Below, piece after piece: positions 2,859-57,563 of a stretch of DNA of 64,000 nucleotides; positions within the stretch are counted from its first letter, which is position 1, and every line of letters begins with the position of its first letter. The notes under the pieces were generated by a model. The model did not search any database. It worked only from the letters and a program-made list of their open reading frames with translations, and had not been told where the DNA came from. Position numbers and translations under genes: made by a program. The stretch lies in NCBI RefSeq assembly GCF_055900595.2, contig NZ_CM148325.1; one strand, written 5' to 3'.

Positions 2859-4223
2859 TTACGTGCAGATTTCGTAGCAAGGGATGTACGCTGAGCCTGG
2901 CAACTTCATACGATGCTGGGCAACAAAACCCTGTAGCAGGTCGTCCATACGACGCATAATCTCTTTATCGCCGTTGATTTTGTAAGGACCAAACTCTTCA
3001 ATGGCGCGAATACCGACTTCTTTTACGTTACCCGCCACAATACCGGAGAAGGCACGACGCAGATCAGCGGCCAAAACTTCTACTGGCTGATCCGGGTACA
3101 GTTTCAGATTAGCCATGTTCTCGTGAGACGGCTCAAACGGCATTTGCAGATCGGGCGCAATACGCATTGACCAGTTAAAGCTGTAGGCATCGCCCGTATC
3201 GCGACGGTTTTCTTTCACCAGCGGCATCGATTTTTTCATCTGACGAGCGACTTCAGCGGCGTCATCAATGATGATGCGATAATGGCGTCGCGCGTTTTCT
3301 CCCAGCGTATGCACGACAAACTCGTCCAGTACGCGGAAATAGTCGGCGCTCTCTTTTGGCCCGGTGAGGATCAATGGTAAAACCTGATCTTTGTTGGCCG
3401 GATTCATTAAAATTCCCAGCAAATACAGCAACTCTTCTGCCGTACCCACACCGCCAGGGAAGATAATGATGCCGTGAGCGATACGAACAAAAGCTTCCAG
3501 ACGTTTTTCGATATCCGGCATGATGATCAATTCGTTGACCAGCGGGTTAGGCGGTTCAGCGGCGATAATCGACGGCTCTGTCATACCAATAAAACGACTG
3601 TCTTTGTAACGCTGCTGTGCGTGTCCGACCGCAGCACCTTTCATCGGCGCTTCCATCGCTCCCGGACCACAGCCGGTGCAGATATTCAGCTCACGCAGGC
3701 CCAGCTGATTCCCGACGCGACGGGCATACAAATACTCGTTTTCGTTAATTGAGTGCCCGCCCCAGCAGACCACCATATTTGGCGCTTCACCGACATGCAG
3801 CGCACGAGCGTTACGCAAGATGGAAAAGACCAGGTTAGTGATGTGGACGGAGTTGTCGAGATTCAGGTTGGGAAAACGAACGGTGTTATGGATTTGCCCG
3901 TAAACGAAGAGAATGTCACGCAGAACCGCGAACAAGTTGGCCTGCAAAGCGCGGATAATACGCCCATCGACAAAAGCATCTTCCGGTGGATTAATCAGTT
4001 CCAGCTTTACGCCGCGTTCACGGCGCAGGACGTTAATATCGAAATTTTCAAAACGAGACAGCAATTCTTTGCTGTTATCGGTCAAACTACCGGAGTTCAG
4101 TACGGCAAGTGAACAGTTGCGAAACAGTTGATAGAGGTCGCTGCTGGCGGTGCGTTTAAGCATATCCACTTCCAGCTGCGACAACATATCCATGGAGCCA
4201 AGCGGGCTAATATGTGTAATCAA
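2859..4223 (-). CDS. ppnN: Nucleotide 5'-monophosphate nucleosidase PpnN (LOG family, YgdH)
   Basis: 454-aa [27 protein letters not shown]... with PGGxGTxEE LOG-type motif. Confidence 0.88.
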
Positions 4224-4334
4224 GAAAAACTCCTTATGGGACGAATATCGTCATTCCCTTTGATTACAATAGCCCTGCCTGATGACCTTTCACAACCTTC
4301 TGCGTGAATCCAGCACGCAAAATTGAGAAAAAAT

Positions 4335-5183
4335 TTATTGCCGAACCAGTCTTGTGGTCGATGGGACAAAATCGCTATTACTGCGCCACGGGTTAATGTC
4401 CAGACCGCCACGACGGGTATAACGTGCGTAAACGCTCAATTTCTCTGGCTGGCAGAAGCGTAACAGGTCATTAAAGATGCGTTCCACGCACTGTTCGTGG
4501 AACTCGTTGTGATGACGGAATGAGACCAGGTAACGCAGCAGTTTTTCTCTGTCAATTTGGCGTCCACGATACTGAATTTGGATCGAACCCCAATCTGGTT
4601 GATGGGTGATCAGGCAGTTTGATTTCAGCAGGTGGCTGACGAGCGTCTCTTCTACTACTTTTTCACCACTGGTGGCATTCTCAAGATAGTCAGTAGTGAA
4701 TTCATAGTTATCGATAGTGATATCCTGGTCATCAATGCAGGTGCCATTGAAATGACCTATCGGCTGGCCTTCCAGTTCATCAAGACGATATAACGCCACG
4801 CTAACCTTACCCTGAGCGCAAGTGCTTAAGTCGCGCTCCAGCGTCTGGCGCACCTCATCCCAGTTATTAAAACGCGTCTGGTTAAAACTGTTGAGATAAA
4901 GCTTAAAACTCTTCGACTCAATCAGATTTACGCTGGTGTAATCAAGTTCAACATGACCGACAGCGACCTGCGGCAAACCTTTCGCATTCAGCCAGGAAAG
5001 TTCATACAGCGTCCAGATATCCGTACCGTGAAAAGGCAGGTTATCCGCTTTCAGACCCAGCGGGTCGCGATTCAGGCTGCGTGGAACGCCTTGCAGTAGG
5101 CTGGCGTCATAGGTATCCCGGTAATCGGTTGATTTTCCAAGAGTCAGGCCCGCAAGTGCCTGATGGTTTGCATAAGAAGACAT
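4335..5183 (-). CDS. queF: NADPH-dependent 7-cyano-7-deazaguanine reductase QueF
   Basis: 282-aa [29 protein letters not shown]..., length and sequence fit two-domain QueF. Confidence 0.9.
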
Positions 5184-5250
5184 GTTTCACCGTCATAAAC
5201 CAGATAAACTAAACGACAAGTGTATCTGGTTTAAGTGAAGAGAGAAATTA

Positions 5251-5796
5251 GTGGACGATTTGACCGCACAAGCCCTGAAAGATTTTACTGCACGCTACTG
5301 CGATGCGTGGCATGAAGAGCATAAAAGCTGGCCGTTAAGTGAGGAACTGTACGGCGTTCCTTCACCGTGCATTATTTCAACCACCGAAGACGCTGTATAC
5401 TGGCAACCCCAGCCGTTTACCGGTGAACAAAATGTAAACGCGGTTGAACGTGCTTTTGATATTGTGATACAACCCACGGTTCATACTTTTTACACGACCC
5501 AGTTTGCCGGGGATATGCACGCGCAGTTTGGCGATATCAAACTGACATTGCTGCAAACCTGGAGTGAAGACGACTTCCGTCGGGTGCAGGAAAATCTGAT
5601 TGGTCATCTGGTGACTCAGAAAAGGCTAAAACTGCCGCCCACGCTATTTATCGCGACGCTGGAAGAAGAGTTAGAGGTCATCTCGGTGTGTAATCTCTCC
5701 GGTGAAGTGTGCAAAGAGACGCTGGGAACACGTAAACGGACGCATTTAGCCTCAAATCTTGCGGAATTCCTTAATCAACTTAAGCCTCTTCTGTAA
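5251..5796 (+). CDS. syd: SecY-interacting protein Syd
   Basis: 181-aa [38 protein letters not shown]... Confidence 0.88.
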
Positions 5797-5815
5797 TCCA
5801 AATACCCCATCTTGT

Positions 5816-5833
5816 TGTGAGAGATCTCTTACA
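5816..5833. promoter_or_regulatory. UvrY/SirA-type response-regulator box upstream of csrB
   Basis: Perfect 18-bp palindrome TGTGAGAGATCTCTTACA centred about 183 bp upstream of the inferred csrB 5' end. Confidence 0.7.
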
Positions 5834-6006
5834 GACTCTGTAGGAGATCGCCAGGAAATAAGCGAATACTTAAAAAGATAAGAATCGTTATTTTCATTTA
5901 AAATCAATATATTGCTTGTTAATTCCTAACTTTCATATGAAATTTTCCTTAAGGCATTGTCTGTAAGCGCCTTGTAAGACTTCGCGAAAAAGACGATTCT
6001 ATCTTC

Positions 6007-28128: not shown

Positions 28129-28137
28129 CTTTTTGCC
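28129..28137. repeat. IS10 target-site duplication, left copy (CTTTTTGCC)
   Basis: Identical 9-mer directly abuts both IS10 ends. Confidence 0.9.
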
Positions 28138-29466
28138 CTGAGAGATCCCCTCATAATTTCCCCAAAACGTAACCATGTGTGAATAGATTTTGAGTAAGCA
28201 GGGTTGCAGCCACGAGTGAGTCTTCCCTTGTTATTGTGTAGCCAGAATGCCGCAAAACTTCCATGCCTAAGCGAACTGTTGAGAGTACGTTTCGATTTCT
28301 GACTGTGTTAGCCTGGAAGTGCTTGTCCCAACCTTGTTTCTGAGCATGAACGCCCGCAAGCCAACATGTTAGTTGAAGCATCAGGGCGATTAGCAGCATG
28401 ATATCAAAACGCTCTGAGCTGCTCGTTCGGCTATGGCGTAGGCCTAGTCCGTAGGCAGGACTTTTCAAGTCTCGGAAGGTTTCTTCAATCTGCATTCGCT
28501 TCGAATAGATATTAACAAGTTGTTTGGGTGTTCGAATTTCAACAGGTAAGTTAGTTGCTAGAATCCATGGCTCCTTTGCCGACGCTGAGTAGATTTTAGG
28601 TGACGGGTGGTGACAATGAGTCCGTGTCGAGCGCTGATTTTTTCGGCCTTTAGAGCGAGATTTATACAATAGAATTTGGCATGAGATTGGATTGCTTTTA
28701 GTCAGCCTCTTATAGCCTAAAGTCTTTGAGTGACTAGATGACATATCATGTAAGTTGCTGATAGGTTTCCAGTTTTCCGCTCCTAGGTCTGCATATTGTA
28801 CTTTTCCTCTTACTCGACTTAACCAGTACCAACCCAGCTTCTCAACGGATTTATACCATGGCACTTTAAAGCCAGCATCACTGACAATGAGCGGTGTGGT
28901 GTTACTCGGTAGAATGCTCGCAAGGTCGGCTAGAAATTGGTCATGAGCTTTCTTTGAACATTGCTCTGAAAGCGGGAACGCTTTCTCATAAAGAGTAACA
29001 GAACGACCGTGTAGTGCGACTGAAGCTCGCAATACCATAAGCCGTTTTTGCTCACGGATATCAGACCAGTCAACAAGTACAATGGGCATCGTATTGCCCG
29101 AACAGATAAAGCTAGCATGCCAACGGTATACAGCGAGTCGCTCTTTGTGGAGGTGACGATTACCTAACAATCGGTCGATTCGTTTGATGTTATGTTTTGT
29201 TCTCGCTTTGGTTGGCAGGTTACGGCCAAGTTCGGTAAGAGTGAGAGTTTTACAGTCAAGTAAGGCGTGGCAAGCCAACGTTAAGCTGTTGAGTCGTTTT
29301 AAGTGTAATTCGGGGCAGAATTGGTAAAGAGAGTCGTGTAAAATATCGAGTTCGCACATTTTGTTGTCTGATTATTGATTTTTGGCGAAACCATTTGATC
29401 ATATGACAAGATGTGTATCCACCTTAACTTAATGATTTTTACCAAAATCATTAGGGGATTCATCAG
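28138..29466 (-). mobile_element. IS10 (IS4 family), complete 1329-bp copy
   Basis: Ends CTGAGAGATCCCCTCATAATTTCCCC (inside end) and, on the reverse strand, CTGATGAATCCCCTAATGATTTTGGT (outside end); exact length 1329 bp; 402-aa transposase; flanked by 9-bp direct repeat. Confidence 0.93.
28151..29359 (-). CDS. IS10 transposase
   Basis: 402-aa ORF MCELDILHDSLYQFCPELHLKRLNSLTLACHALLDCK... Confidence 0.93.
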   Translation of the reverse strand: MCELDILHDSLYQFCPELHLKRLNSLTLACHALLDCKTLTLTELGRNLPTKARTKHNIKRIDRLLGNRHLHKERLAVYRWHASFICSGNTMPIVLVDWSDIREQKRLMVLRASVALHGRSVTLYEKAFPLSEQCSKKAHDQFLADLASILPSNTTPLIVSDAGFKVPWYKSVEKLGWYWLSRVRGKVQYADLGAENWKPISNLHDMSSSHSKTLGYKRLTKSNPISCQILLYKSRSKGRKNQRSTRTHCHHPSPKIYSASAKEPWILATNLPVEIRTPKQLVNIYSKRMQIEETFRDLKSPAYGLGLRHSRTSSSERFDIMLLIALMLQLTCWLAGVHAQKQGWDKHFQANTVRNRNVLSTVRLGMEVLRHSGYTITREDSLVAATLLTQNLFTHGYVLGKL

Positions 29467-29475
29467 CTTTTTGCC
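29467..29475. repeat. IS10 target-site duplication, right copy (CTTTTTGCC)
   Basis: Matches 28129..28137 exactly. Confidence 0.9.
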
Positions 29476-29566: not shown

Positions 29567-30238
29567 ATGCAGTACCCGATTAACGAGATGTTCCAGACCC
29601 TGCAAGGTGAGGGTTACTTTACCGGCGTCCCCGCCATTTTTATTCGTTTACAGGGATGCCCGGTCGGCTGTGCCTGGTGCGACACCAAACACACCTGGGA
29701 AAAGCTTGAGGATCGGGAAGTCTCCCTTTTCAGCATTCTGGCGAAGACCAAAGAGAGTGATAAGTGGGGGGCGGCGAGCAGTGAAGATTTGCTGGCTGTC
29801 ATTGGTCGTCAGGGATACACCGCGCGGCATGTGGTGATTACGGGTGGTGAGCCTTGCATTCATGATTTGCTGCCACTGACTGACCTGCTCGAAAAGAACG
29901 GTTTTAGCTGCCAGATCGAAACCAGCGGTACTCATGAAGTACGCTGCACGCCGAATACCTGGGTTACCGTATCGCCAAAGCTGAACATGCGCGGCGGCTA
30001 TGAAGTGTTGTCACAGGCACTGGAACGAGCCAACGAAATCAAGCATCCAGTGGGACGCGTACGTGATATTGAAGCACTGGATGAACTACTGGCAACGCTG
30101 ACCGATGATAAACCACGAGTCATTGCACTGCAGCCAATTAGCCAGAAGGACGATGCCACACGTTTGTGCATTGAAACCTGTATTGCGCGTAACTGGCGTT
30201 TATCGATGCAAACACATAAATATTTAAATATTGCCTGA
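29567..30238 (+). CDS. queE: 7-carboxy-7-deazaguanine synthase QueE (radical SAM)
   Basis: 223-aa ORF with CPVGCAWCDT radical-SAM cysteine motif. Confidence 0.9.
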   Translation: MQYPINEMFQTLQGEGYFTGVPAIFIRLQGCPVGCAWCDTKHTWEKLEDREVSLFSILAKTKESDKWGAASSEDLLAVIGRQGYTARHVVITGGEPCIHDLLPLTDLLEKNGFSCQIETSGTHEVRCTPNTWVTVSPKLNMRGGYEVLSQALERANEIKHPVGRVRDIEALDELLATLTDDKPRVIALQPISQKDDATRLCIETCIARNWRLSMQTHKYLNIA

Positions 30239-30576
30239 TTAAACATTTATAAGCGTTATAAATGGGTGGAACCTGTAAAGACTTCCACTCATTTATATTC
30301 TTTGTCGCCTCTGAAAAAACTCCATTTTGCCCATCCTGGACTAATCATTATCATTCTCTACAAATTCTCTGGCGTTAATTTTTCGTTGGAGTGAAAATTA
30401 TTGCGGTAAAGTTTGGTAGATTTTAGTGGGTATAGAGTTATTTTAAATATTTACTTTTTTAATCAATGGATTAAGTGTTCTTTAACATAATGGATGTGTT
30501 GTTTGTGTGATCCTGTAAAGTTGGTAGATTGTGACTGGCTTAAAAAATCATTAATTAATAATAGGTTATGTTTAGA

Positions 30577-31154
30577 GAGTTCCCCACGTCAGCGGGGATA
30601 AACCTTGCTCGATGCGGGCGTTAACTTTTTTATAGGCGAGTTCCCCGCGCCAGCGGGGATAAACCGCGTAATTTTGTACGCTCAACACGTAACTAAATGA
30701 GTTCCCCGCGCCAGCGGGGATAAACCGATCACCAGTGCGGATTGTTCAAATAGTGCCTGGAGTTCCCCGCGCCAGCGGGGATAAACCGAGAGCTATATCG
30801 CAGCGTTTAACTGGATGACAGAGTTCCCCGCGCCAGCGGGGATAAACCGGTGTTTTTTGCCATCTGAACTGTGGCACGCCGGAGTTCCCCGCGCCAGCGG
30901 GGATAAACCGTCTATAATGTCTCATCCGGGGTTAATTCAATCGAGTTCCCCGCGCCAGCGGGGATAAACCGATCAGCCCCACATCCGGTTTTGCCAGCAA
31001 CGTGAGTTCCCCGCGCCAGCGGGGATAAACCGTAAGATGATCTCACGGAATTGAACGAACTACGGAGTTCCCCGCGCTAGCGGGGATAAACCGGACACAG
31101 AGCGCCGCTATAGCGCCTATGCCAAGAGTTCCCCGCACCAGCGGGAATAAACCA
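30577..31154 (+). CRISPR. Type I-E CRISPR array (CRISPR 2.3-like): 10 repeats, 9 spacers of 32 nt
   Basis: 29-nt repeat GAGTTCCCCGCGCCAGCGGGGATAAACCG at 61-bp period starting 30577, 30638, ... 31126; first and last repeats degenerate; AT-rich leader-like region 30240..30576. Confidence 0.95.
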
Positions 31155-31608
31155 CCATATAACCCGTTATCTCTTTCTCAAGTTTTTATATTAGCAGTAC
31201 TCGTATTAAGCAACATATCCACGTAACACCTCATGTTCAAAATAGCTCTCCATATATGAGAAGTTCACAATTATCGATACAAAAAATCAAATTTAATTAA
31301 AGTGTTAGTTGTATAATACTTAAATCATTAAGAAATTATCATATATTATTTTTTTAATATTGAATTGATGTTTGTTAATTTTTTCTTTAGGATAATAGTT
31401 TGTTTTTTAAGCTTATTATTCATTGATTAAGTAATAAATCTGGAAATTTGTCTTTGTTTTGAGGCTAATGAGTGATTTTACATAATCGCCTCTATAGGCT
31501 GTTGATGAATAGTTCTTATGAATAAAGATATCCAGTTCATACTTTAAGTGAAAATTGATAAAGTGCGATTCGTATTGTCTTTTATTCTAATGACATCGAG
31601 TGTAGTTA

Positions 31609-31746
31609 ATATTCCTTGTAAAAACAGGGATAAACCGAACTAGTTAAAGTTTTTATTATGTTCCCTGCATCAGCGGGGATAAACCGGACTTGTTATCATT
31701 TTTTAAGTTGTCGAACTTATGTTCCCCGCGCCAGCGGGGATAACCA
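31609..31746 (+). CRISPR. Degenerate mini-array (CRISPR 2.2-like remnant), about 3 repeats
   Basis: Repeats ATGTTCCCTGCATCAGCGGGGATAAACCG (31658) and ATGTTCCCCGCGCCAGCGGGGATAACC (31719) plus a partial upstream copy ending ...CAGGGATAAACCG (31637). Confidence 0.7.
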
Positions 31747-31792
31747 TTCAGGTATGTTCAGGCCGGGCAGTTTCCCGCCCGGCCTTCCTCAC

Positions 31793-33271
31793 TTACGCAT
31801 TCGACCAGCTCTGGATCGAATCTTCATTCCCCAGCTCACCATGCATCACTTCATACGATTTTTTCAGGATCACATCAGTGTGCTTGGTTAGGTCTTTGAA
31901 AATGCCTTTATTCATCGCGTCGTAGCGTTTGGCGTTGCTCTCAACAGGCATAAAGATATCTTTCACGCGAACCATTTTGTCGACAGCCGTTGCGTAATCC
32001 GGGTATAGCCCCAGACCTACCGTCGTATTAATCGCTGCCCCCAGACTTGCACAACCATTAATGGCGTTACGGCGTGCCGGAAGGTTGAACACGTCGGCAA
32101 AAATCTGCATAAACAGATCGCTGTTCGAACCGCCGCCAGTAATGATCACATGCTTTGCAAAGTGATTCATTTCATTACACATATTGTCGTAATTGTTCTT
32201 CAGCGTCAGCGCCACGCTTTCCAGTATTGAACGATATATCCATGCGTAATCCATGCTGGAATCAAAGCCGATCATAATCCCGCGTTTGTACGGTTCCCAC
32301 GGATTGGTCAGCCAGTCCAGCACCGTCATCAGACCATTACAGCCAGGCGGCACACAAGACGCTTTTTTGTTGAGCAAATCTTCCGGTGAAAGATCCTGTG
32401 CTTTGGCATCCTGAATTAACGACTCGCCTAACATGTCGCGCAGCCAGCTCACTGTCCACATGCCTTTGCGGATACCGTAACCTTCATACAGCAAGGTTTG
32501 CGGAATAGAAGACATAATCGGCCAGTACGCTACCGGATCTTTCGGCAGTACTTTGCCGTTCATCATCAACGCGATGTAAGTGCCAAGAGAAATTACCGCA
32601 GTTTCATCATCCAGTAACCCGGCTCCCAGTGCTTCTACCGGTTTATCACTGGTGGTACAAACAACCGGCAGCCCAGCCGGGAAATGTGTCGCCAGCGCGG
32701 CTTGTGGTGTGATATGCCCAAGAACAGTGCCCGGCATTTGCACATCAAAAAGCATCTGTCGGGGAATATTAAACTTCTCCATTACCGCGGTATCTTCGCT
32801 CCATGCCCAGGTCTTATAATCCACCGGCCACTGACCAAAATAGTTGGCGATATTGTCTTTAAACTCGCCGGTTAAACGGTGTGTCAGATAACCTGAAAAA
32901 GAGGTGACATATGCCACATCAGGATTGGTGTGCTCGTAGGGACGTGTTACGCGTGCATCCTGCCAGCTAATCAACGGCGCAGCTGGCGTGCCATCGGCTT
33001 TCAATAACGCACGGCAGCAACGGATAGATCCCAGACCAATGCCGACAATATCTTCTTTATTCCCGGCAAACTGGCTCATCAAATCGTGACCGGCAAAACA
33101 TAATGATGCCCATAAATCGTCGTCAGGATGTTCTGCGGTATCGGCATCTGGCGTGCGCATCGGCTGCAATAAGCCTTTGCCTTCGCATACCACATTACCT
33201 TCCAGATCGTACATCACCACTTTTGTGCTCTGACTTCCGCCATCAATCCCTATGATGTATTTTTTCGACAT
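31793..33271 (-). CDS. ygcE: FGGY-family carbohydrate kinase
   Basis: 492-aa ORF MSKKYIIGIDGGSQSTKVVMYDLEGN... sugar-kinase N-terminus. Confidence 0.85.
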   Translation of the reverse strand: MSKKYIIGIDGGSQSTKVVMYDLEGNVVCEGKGLLQPMRTPDADTAEHPDDDLWASLCFAGHDLMSQFAGNKEDIVGIGLGSIRCCRALLKADGTPAAPLISWQDARVTRPYEHTNPDVAYVTSFSGYLTHRLTGEFKDNIANYFGQWPVDYKTWAWSEDTAVMEKFNIPRQMLFDVQMPGTVLGHITPQAALATHFPAGLPVVCTTSDKPVEALGAGLLDDETAVISLGTYIALMMNGKVLPKDPVAYWPIMSSIPQTLLYEGYGIRKGMWTVSWLRDMLGESLIQDAKAQDLSPEDLLNKKASCVPPGCNGLMTVLDWLTNPWEPYKRGIMIGFDSSMDYAWIYRSILESVALTLKNNYDNMCNEMNHFAKHVIITGGGSNSDLFMQIFADVFNLPARRNAINGCASLGAAINTTVGLGLYPDYATAVDKMVRVKDIFMPVESNAKRYDAMNKGIFKDLTKHTDVILKKSYEVMHGELGNEDSIQSWSNA

Positions 33272-38634: not shown

Positions 38635-39391
38635 AGCCGAACCGGATGCCGGAATGCTGGCGGAAAAAGAGTGGCAGGCAGCGGCTCAGGGTAATAGCGG
38701 ACCGGATGTTTCGCTTCTGCGAAGTTTACTCGGTGCTGATGAACAGGCTGCCGCCGCGCTGCTGTTGGCGCAGAGAAAAAACGGTATGTCGATGTCTTTA
38801 ACCGCGTTGAGCATGGGGGATGAACGGGCGTTGCACTGGCTGCGCTATCTCATGGCTCTTGGGTTTGAGGAAGCTGTATTGCTGGAGACGGCGGCAGATA
38901 TGCGCTTTGCGCCGGAATTTGTCGCTCGCCATATTGCCGAATGGCAGCGCCAGAATCCGCTGGATCTGATCATTACTGGCTGCCAGAGCAGCGAAGGGCA
39001 GAACGGGCAAACGCCATTTTTGCTGGCGGAAATGCTGACCTGGCCCTGCTTTACCCAGGTGGAGCGTTTTACTCTCGACGCACCGTTTATCTCGCTCGAA
39101 CAGCGTACTGAACATGGATTACGCTGTTGTCGGGTTCGCTTGCCTGCGGTGATTGCCGTGCGCCAGTGTGGCGAGGTGGCCTTGCCAGTACCGGGAATGC
39201 GCCAGCGAATGGCTGCGGGGAAAGCTGAAATTATCCGCAAAACTGTTACTGCTGAATCGCCAGCGATGCAGTGCCGGCAACTGGAAAGGCCAGAGCAACG
39301 ACGCGGTGCAACGCTTCTTGATGGGCCAACGGTAGCAGAAAAAGCGCAAAAACTGTGGCGGGATTATTTGTGCCAGAGGATGCAGCCATGA
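38612..39391 (+). CDS. ygcR: Electron-transfer-flavoprotein beta-subunit-like protein (FixA-like)
   Basis: 259-aa ORF; start overlaps the ygcS 3' end. Confidence 0.8.
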   Translation: MNILLAFKAEPDAGMLAEKEWQAAAQGNSGPDVSLLRSLLGADEQAAAALLLAQRKNGMSMSLTALSMGDERALHWLRYLMALGFEEAVLLETAADMRFAPEFVARHIAEWQRQNPLDLIITGCQSSEGQNGQTPFLLAEMLTWPCFTQVERFTLDAPFISLEQRTEHGLRCCRVRLPAVIAVRQCGEVALPVPGMRQRMAAGKAEIIRKTVTAESPAMQCRQLERPEQRRGATLLDGPTVAEKAQKLWRDYLCQRMQP

Positions 39392-40248
39392 ATATCGCAA
39401 TTGTGACAATAAATCAGGACCATGCCGCAATAGCGAGCTGGCTGGCGGAGCAGGATTTCAGCGGCAGCACATTAACGCACTGGCAAATCGAGCCGCAGCC
39501 GATGGTCGCGGAACAGGTGCTGGATGCGCTGGTAGAACAGTGGCAGCGAACGCCTGCGGACGTTGTTCTCTTTCCGCCGGGAACGTTTGGCGATGAACTG
39601 GCTACCCGCCTGTCCTGGCGTTTACATGGTGCCAGTATATGCCAGGTGACTTCATTAAATATTCCAACCGGAAGCGTACGCAAATCCCACTGGGGAAATG
39701 CGCTAACGGCGACGCTGCAAACAGAAAAACGCCCGCTATGCCTTTCCCTTGCCCGCCAGGCGGGAGCAGTGAAAAATGCCACGTTGCCCTCTGGTATGCA
39801 GCAACTGAACATTGTCCCCGGCGCGCTTCCCGACTGGCTGGTTAGCACAGAGGATCTGAAAAATGTTACCCGTGACCCATTAGCTGAGGCCAGACGGGTG
39901 CTGGTGGTGGGGCAGGGCGGAGAGGCAGATAACCAGGAAATCGCTATGCTGGCAGAAAAGCTGGGAGCCGAAGTGGGCTACAGTCGGGCGCGAGTAATGA
40001 ACGGTGGCGTTGATGCCGAAAAAGTGATTGGTATTTCCGGACATCTGCTGGCACCTGAGGTGTGTATTGTTGTTGGCGCTTCCGGCGCAGCAGCGTTAAT
40101 GGCGGGCGTCCGCAATAGCAAGTTTGTGGTGGCGATTAATCATGACGCCAGCGCGGCGGTATTTTCACAGGCAGATGTTGGCGTGGTTGATGACTGGAAA
40201 GCGGTGCTGGAGGCACTGGTGACAACCATTCACGCAGATTGCCAATAA
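39388..40248 (+). CDS. ygcQ: Electron-transfer-flavoprotein alpha-subunit-like protein (FixB-like)
   Basis: ORF from MNIAIVTINQDHAAIASWL...; ATGA overlap with the ygcR stop. Confidence 0.8.
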   Translation: MNIAIVTINQDHAAIASWLAEQDFSGSTLTHWQIEPQPMVAEQVLDALVEQWQRTPADVVLFPPGTFGDELATRLSWRLHGASICQVTSLNIPTGSVRKSHWGNALTATLQTEKRPLCLSLARQAGAVKNATLPSGMQQLNIVPGALPDWLVSTEDLKNVTRDPLAEARRVLVVGQGGEADNQEIAMLAEKLGAEVGYSRARVMNGGVDAEKVIGISGHLLAPEVCIVVGASGAAALMAGVRNSKFVVAINHDASAAVFSQADVGVVDDWKAVLEALVTTIHADCQ

Positions 40249-56862: not shown

Positions 56863-57563
56863 GTGTTCCCCGCGCTAGCGGGGATAAACCGGTAATAAAT
56901 TCTTTGTGCGCGAAGAAATGAAGGTGTTCCCCGCGCTAGCGGGGATAAACCACGTGGCAACAATATTCCGCTGCTTTAACGCAAGTGTTCCCCGCGCTAG
57001 CGGGGATAAACCGGCGGCGATCATCTTTGACGCCGACCTGTTTCGGTGTTCCCCGCGCTAGCGGGGATAAACCGCGCTACCACAGGTCGCTACCGCATGG
57101 GCTTCAGTGTTCCCCGCGCTAGCGGGGATAAACCGCGGTCATATTGCGCCTGCACAGACTCACTGCGGTGTTCCCCGCGCTAGCGGGGATAAACCGGGGC
57201 AGGGAAATCACGGGCACGGTGACGATATGTGTTCCCCGCGCTAGCGGGGATAAACCGCCAAAACCATGACGTTCTCACTATCGGATGTGGTGTTCCCCGC
57301 GCTAGCGGGGATAAACCGTGGCCACCGGCAAAGAAAAAACGGAGTTCTGGCGTGTTCCCCGCGCCAGCGGGGATAAACCGGAAACTGTACTTGATGCGCT
57401 GAAAGCGATGGGGTGTTCCCCGCGCCAGCGGGGATAAACCGATGGCCCAGGGATTTGTTCAGTCCAGCGTGCCGTGTTCCCCGCGCCAGCGGGGATAAAC
57501 CGCTCTCGGTTCTGGGGTACTGTTACCCATAACTGAGCTCCCCCGCGTCAGCGGGGAACTCCC
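56863..57563 (+). CRISPR. Type I-E CRISPR array (CRISPR I): 12 repeats, 11 spacers
   Basis: 29-nt repeat GTGTTCCCCGCGC(T/C)AGCGGGGATAAACCG at 61-bp period (one 33-nt spacer); terminal repeat degenerate (GAGCTCCCCCGCGTCAGCGGGGAACTCCC). Confidence 0.96.

Follow-up and report, generated by a model that had tools for sequence, protein, structure and literature searches.

The closest described relatives of the array studied here are the CRISPR2.3 arrays of Escherichia coli K-12, BL21 and O157, which belong to the type I-E CRISPR-II locus (for the nomenclature, see PMC3737337 and PMC3903273). Every acquisition of a spacer copies the first repeat of the array (PMC10011333). The repeat proper is 28 bp long, and position 29 of the customary unit is derived from the PAM; a 33-bp spacer begins with this base, which is normally the G of an AAG PAM (PMC10011333; PMC5039180; PMC3737337). 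Within the repeat, the CCCCGCG motif of inverted repeat 1 is one of two anchors for the rulers that set the second cut whatever the downstream sequence, adaptation does not need the loop, and multi-base changes in the inverted repeats, including CCCCGCG, bring it down about 100-fold (PMC5039180). H-NS silences the promoter Pcas8e, from which cas1 and cas2 are expressed, and E. coli arrays evolve slowly (PMC10011333).

Here we analyse a CRISPR2.3 array within a 64,000-nt stretch of DNA (the window). A first-pass annotation of its sequence had proposed that substitutions in the leader-proximal repeat impair the integration of new spacers and that the array is for this reason a static record. The features that bear on this proposal are the following.

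29567..30238, + strand: queE (ygcF), flanking the leader side of CRISPR-II (TIGR04322 QueE, 1e-110; annotated as queE in relatives)
30239..30576, + strand: leader 2.3, 69% A+T, starting directly after the queE stop at 30238
30577..30605, + strand: repeat 1 (R1), ACGT allele, with G10A in inverted repeat 1, C13T in the loop and T at position 29
30606..31125, + strand: spacers s01-s09 (32 nt each) and repeats R2-R9, with R2-R8 an exact consensus
30789..30820, + strand: spacer s04, matching the rha gene of Lederbergvirus/lambdoid phages and phage-plasmids (33/36 including flanks)
31065..31093, + strand: R9, with C14T (CTAG loop variant); the equivalent repeat of strain 2013C-4282 is consensus
31126..31154, + strand: R10, degenerate terminal repeat GAGTTCCCCGCACCAGCGGGAATAAACCA with three changes, also present in 2013C-4282
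31658..31747, + strand: CRISPR2.2 remnant, two degenerate repeats and one spacer conserved across E. coli
48247..56766, + strand: complete cas-E operon (cas3, cse1, cse2, cas7, cas5, cas6e, cas1, cas2), all full-length ORFs
56863..57502, + strand: CRISPR I (2.1), 11 repeats, the eight leader-proximal ones with C14T and the three oldest consensus

A classical CRISPR2.3 array beside queE

The array comprises ten 29-nt type I-E repeats and nine 32-nt spacers on the + strand between 30577 and 31154. The repeats start at 30577, 30638, 30699, 30760, 30821, 30882, 30943, 31004, 31065 and 31126, so that the period is exactly 61 nt over all nine spacings, and the nine spacers all differ from one another; with so exact a period in a ten-copy array, chance is no concern. 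Seven of the ten repeats match the consensus GAGTTCCCCGCGCCAGCGGGGATAAACCG exactly. This is the type-2 repeat, GWGTTCCCCGCGCCAGCGGGGATAAACC(G), with its 7-bp palindrome and 4-nt loop, and its predicted hairpin has a free energy of -15.1 kcal/mol (z = -3.6). The 61-nt unit holds unique spacers of 32 nt, or 33 nt if position 29 is counted with them. The preceding 338 nt are homologous to leader 2.3 and AT-rich (69% A+T, against 49.5% in the whole window), and about 4,070 E. coli genomes match the last 40 nt of this leader to at least 94%. The array lies between queE and ygcE, with CRISPR2.2 0.5 kb downstream, and this locus, flanks and array, was matched in 5,422 of 5,426 complete E. coli genomes. 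The cognate cas-E genes, including cas1, cas2 and cas6e, are within the window. The array is a classical CRISPR2.3 of the E. coli type I-E CRISPR-II locus, an already known kind of locus. The first-pass annotation had described nine 32-nt spacers in the same orientation as CRISPR I behind an AT-rich leader-like region next to queE; the coordinates, the base composition and the shared + strand of both arrays agree with that description.

As in K-12, BL21 and O157, the chromosomal site, leader 2.3, the 28+1-nt type-2 repeat and the 61-nt period are accompanied by a degenerate terminal repeat, by the CRISPR2.2 remnant 0.5 kb downstream and by the cas-E operon with CRISPR2.1 about 26 kb away. Unlike in those strains, the spacers are confined to a small lineage, found in 8 of 5,426 complete genomes, R1 is the ACGT allele, and the cas genes are of a non-K-12 type that scores below the K-12-type Cas3 and CasA equivalog cut-offs. 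Seven of the eight Cas proteins score above the threshold of the corresponding subtype I-E NCBIfam model; Cas3 is recognized by the core-helicase and HD-domain models and, at 421 bits, stays under the 569 bits that the full-length equivalog requires. The window has no IS421 and its cas3 is intact. Four relatives, E200086, Z0117EC0005, E500002 and AST85, carry an IS421 between hok/gef and a frameshifted cas3 (at the equivalent of about 48018 in the window); the first two strains share one orientation of the element, and the last two have the opposite one.

A scan of positions 30200-31800 against Rfam 15, which may hold no model for this repeat, returned no family at the gathering score, and promoter and terminator scans of the region gave matches no more numerous than in shuffled sequence. 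Part of s01 (30606-30630) forms a weak hairpin followed by a T6 run and looks terminator-like, in a region where the count of such matches is not above that in shuffled sequence.

The first repeat differs from the consensus at three positions

The full sequence of R1, GAGTTCCCCACGTCAGCGGGGATAAACCT, departs from the consensus by G10A, C13T and G29T: the variant segment reads CCCCACGTCAGC (G10A, C13T) and the repeat ends in T. In the 7-bp stem, A10 stands opposite C17, as the first-pass annotation had recognized, and the predicted hairpin weakens from -15.1 kcal/mol for the consensus to -9.7 kcal/mol for R1. G10A falls within the CCCCGCG anchor motif, and C13T lies in the dispensable loop between the inverted repeats. 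R2 is a consensus repeat, which means that no spacer has been integrated at R1 since the ACGT variant arrived.

The last base had likewise been counted as damage to the repeat, a reading that does not hold for a PAM-derived spacer base. Because position 29 is outside the duplicated 28-bp repeat, T29 is a property of spacer 1, and it stems from either a non-canonical PAM or a later point change. Bases other than G at this position occur within arrays that kept growing: PK8277 has a T with three newer spacers above it, and in the CRISPR I array of the window an A precedes spacer a02, after which growth continued. The combination of ACGT and T29 was never observed followed by a newer spacer.

The ACGT repeat has been copied in other E. 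coli

We searched the complete E. coli genomes with a 68-nt probe made of the leader's 40 nt and the ACGT repeat, requiring a perfect match, and found the allele at R1 in about 94-100 of the 5,426. Eight of these have the first spacer of the window, and the remainder form one other spacer group; in 87 genomes an ACGT repeat, spacer s15, a consensus repeat and spacer s16 follow one another. Copy number was read in five arrays of the s15/s16 group (20Ec-P-124, MDR_56, KKo009, HCM-28C-2 and CT265), in which 3, 4, 4, 5 and 6 ACGT repeats at the leader end precede the consensus ones, and whose first spacers are nested (s13; s12-s13; s11-s12 and so on). A metagenome contig bears the same array with six ACGT copies. 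Since acquisition copies the first repeat, such a block of variants at the leader end records at least five integrations through the ACGT repeat.

The machinery that carried out these integrations is nearly the same as that in the window. Between 20Ec-P-124 and the window, Cas1 is identical at 303 of 307 residues (99%) and Cas2 at 96 of 97 (99%), Cas6e of an ACGT-block strain matches that of the window at 205 of 216, and the last 64 nt of the window's leader are identical to those of the arrays that grew through ACGT. The ACGT block, in strains whose Cas1 and Cas2 are 99% identical to those of the window and whose proximal leader is the same, indicates that the variant is integration-competent, and a block of this kind in another lineage is at odds with a repeat that Cas1-Cas2 cannot use. 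By extension, the window's own copy, ACGT plus T29, should be integration-competent too, and Cas6e presumably still cleaves R1. The G10A of the window hits the same CCCCGCG motif as the engineered repeat mutants of Goren et al. 2016 (PMC5039180); unlike their multi-base mutants, with a loss of about 100-fold, the natural single G10A is evidently tolerated in vivo, and a quantitative drop in adaptation from G10A alone is possible.

Blocks of this sort resemble the polarised ones that the 'duplicon' concept of CRISPR-A/CRISPR-T describes (PMC3737337). In the ACGT lineage 3-6 variant repeats come before the consensus ones, CRISPR I of the window has eight new C14T repeats ahead of three old consensus repeats, and a 41-repeat I-E array from another organism (L021, positions 3498-5969, the reverse complement of metagenome contig Ga0207655_1000048) has 30 C13T repeats, then 9 consensus repeats and two A10-variant repeats. 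Unlike duplicon blocks, the variant in the CRISPR2.3 of the window is single and so far uncopied in its lineage. The C14T block of CRISPR I is a textbook polarised block from a copied variant first repeat. In the L021 array the 30 C13T repeats are the leader-proximal ones; repeat 40 pairs A10 with T17, a compensatory change that restores the stem, and the terminal repeat is the exact ACGT variant. An exact-pattern scan for the ACGT repeat gave no match among 100,044 species representatives, so it is not the standard repeat of any of them, and a metagenome scan found it on only two contigs.

Both arrays of the lineage are static

Eight close relatives (E200086, E400634, E600003, 100117, 100248, E500002, AST85 and Z0117EC0005), whose sources include Mali, Kenya, Gambia, India, Japan and a Korean dog, share the leader end of the window's array: their CRISPR2.3 always begins with the ACGT repeat, T29 and s01, and none has a new leader-end spacer. 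All differences are internal, with s04-s06 absent in all eight relatives and one extra spacer, s10, in Z0117EC0005. The array is thus the static record that had been suggested, free of the recent leader-end spacers that would have spoken against it.

The cause assigned to this stasis fared differently. In six of the same relatives CRISPR I always starts with a01 and varies by internal deletions only (a03; a04-a06; a11). Stasis is therefore not specific to the array with the aberrant first repeat, and with CRISPR I equally frozen it appears to be system-wide in the lineage and not due to R1. H-NS-type silencing would be a reason for it. Spacer a08 of CRISPR I is 33 nt long, and the repeat that ends in A is the one before a02.

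The extra spacer s10 sits directly behind s01, is flanked by consensus repeats and is found in Z0117EC0005 alone among the 5,426 genomes. It may be ancestral and have been lost two or three times, which is plausible with single-unit deletions being common in the lineage, or it may have been integrated at R2. A 50-kb SNP comparison made to polarise s10 gave a star-like pattern with one private SNP per strain, which favours neither reading.

Explanations for the stasis

We think it likely that the window holds a normal CRISPR2.3 whose ACGT allele is still a template for integration, and that the stasis comes from an adaptation machinery that is rarely active. Transcription of the array would start in the leader, and Cas6e would cut the transcript into crRNAs of 61 nt. 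R1 would be a population allele (G10A plus C13T) that can still serve Cas1-Cas2 as the template for integration and duplication, and T29 would belong to spacer 1 as a PAM-derived base and not to the repeat. With the cas operon silenced by H-NS, the adaptation machinery as a whole would rarely be active, and both arrays would for that reason change only by repeat-repeat deletions. Observation underlies the array anatomy, the distribution of the allele, its polarised propagation elsewhere and the stasis of both arrays.

The substitutions in R1 might instead cripple integration by Cas1-Cas2, processing by Cas6e or both, so that the damaged repeat froze the array. G10A does lie in the anchor motif of inverted repeat 1 (PMC5039180), the hairpin is weaker by prediction, the consensus R2 records no integration at R1 since the change, and no relative has a new spacer at the leader end; s10 also stands exactly where integration at R2 would place a spacer, and it is unique among the 5,426 genomes. 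We nevertheless regard a freeze by damage as improbable, given that the identical 28-bp repeat has been duplicated at least five times in another lineage, where Cas1-Cas2 is 99% identical and the proximal leader is the same, and that CRISPR I in the same strains is as static. The remaining base, at position 29, is spacer-derived, and a non-G there did not halt later growth in other arrays. The position of s10 is accommodated as well, since single-unit deletions are frequent (a03, a11) and two or three independent losses are not unlikely. A milder form, in which ACGT and T29 together partly disable R1 and s10 records a natural, ectopic type I-E integration event at R2, strikes us as very improbable.

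Origin of the variant first repeat

How R1 came by its two changes is a separate matter. The ACGT allele may have been imported or fused rather than made in situ by point mutations: its source would be either a very short conversion tract donated by an array with ACGT repeats, or a deletion between repeats that fused the 5' portion of an ACGT repeat with the 3' portion of the repeat formerly ahead of s01 and removed a block of newer spacers. The same two changes stand on two unrelated spacer backgrounds, no single-mutant intermediate (C13T only or G10A only) occurs at R1 among the 5,426 genomes, repeat-repeat deletions are demonstrably common in the lineage, and recombination between E. coli CRISPR loci has been proposed (PMC3903273). 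Against this, the leaders of the two lineages diverge from -65 upstream at about 45 sites, which limits a conversion tract to 92 bp or less, and no relative keeps an ACGT block upstream of s01. A10 and T13 also recur independently, in the terminal and penultimate repeats of the unrelated metagenome array, in strain 755 and in the CRISPR2.2 repeats. We hold import or fusion only tentatively, at a little under an even chance; recurrence, a short conversion patch and a deletion fusion are all possible. A large recombination import through a shared leader and queE haplotype was considered and rejected, the two sequences having about 45 differences and agreeing only in the last 64 nt.

Repeat 9 and the downstream remnant

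The C14T of R9 is the change found in the eight leader-proximal repeats of CRISPR I, and it is a different change from that in R1, where the loop T is at position 13 and not at position 14. From this likeness the first-pass annotation had suggested an exchange between the arrays. The likeness stands, and the exchange is not supported: strain 2013C-4282, which has s08, s09 and the terminal repeat in common with the window, carries a consensus repeat between s08 and s09, and positions 1-3 of R9 read GAG where the repeats of CRISPR I read GTG. We rejected exchange as unnecessary, as a single C>T transition suffices. The T of R9 is a lineage-specific single change. Strain 755 has an ACAT allele at the position equivalent to R9.

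Upstream of the two CRISPR2.2 repeats, positions 31609-31654 hold a third, more degenerate repeat and spacer unit that is 74% identical to 31658-31703; this similarity suggests an ancient tandem duplication.

Spacer targets and other features of the window

In a search of the spacers against phages and plasmids, s04 was the sole spacer to match a mobile element. With three mismatches it matches rha in phiv205-1, phage 2B8, PhiR70_1 and E. coli phage-plasmids of 39-40 kb. The target reads AAGG upstream, which places AGG in the canonical register and AAG one base further out, in a 'slipped' register. Neither s01 nor s10 gave anything meaningful against the phage and plasmid collections. Several apparent 'phage' or 'plasmid' matches to the repeats were discarded as spurious, coming from mislabelled chromosomal fragments with CRISPR arrays (for example OR845838 and OR851156, labelled as phage, and NZ_CP134663, 4.9 Mb, labelled as plasmid).

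About 100 bp upstream of queE, the window has a 1,338-bp insertion (28130-29467) that none of the four relatives in a 50-kb comparison shares. Its ends are CTGAGAGATCCCC and GGGGATTCATCAG, it has a 9-bp direct duplication, CTTTTTGCC, and it contains a 402-aa ORF on the - strand (28151-29359). The ends are IS10-like, which makes it a candidate IS10. Further along, the ygcQ/ygcR region (39387-39777) has about 33 SNPs in 400 bp relative to the relatives, compared with about 12 in the other ~48 kb, and is probably a short recombination tract.

Implications

For the window itself the outcome matters little, since this is a textbook E. coli CRISPR-II array. Its comparison with other genomes has a by-product: a single G10A in the anchor motif, combined with a change in the loop, is compatible with repeated spacer integration in vivo. 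This tolerance of G10A in natural arrays is a modest complement to the multi-base mutants studied by Goren et al. 2016. The comparison of paired arrays in the same strains illustrates once more that type I-E arrays of E. coli evolve mainly by deletion.
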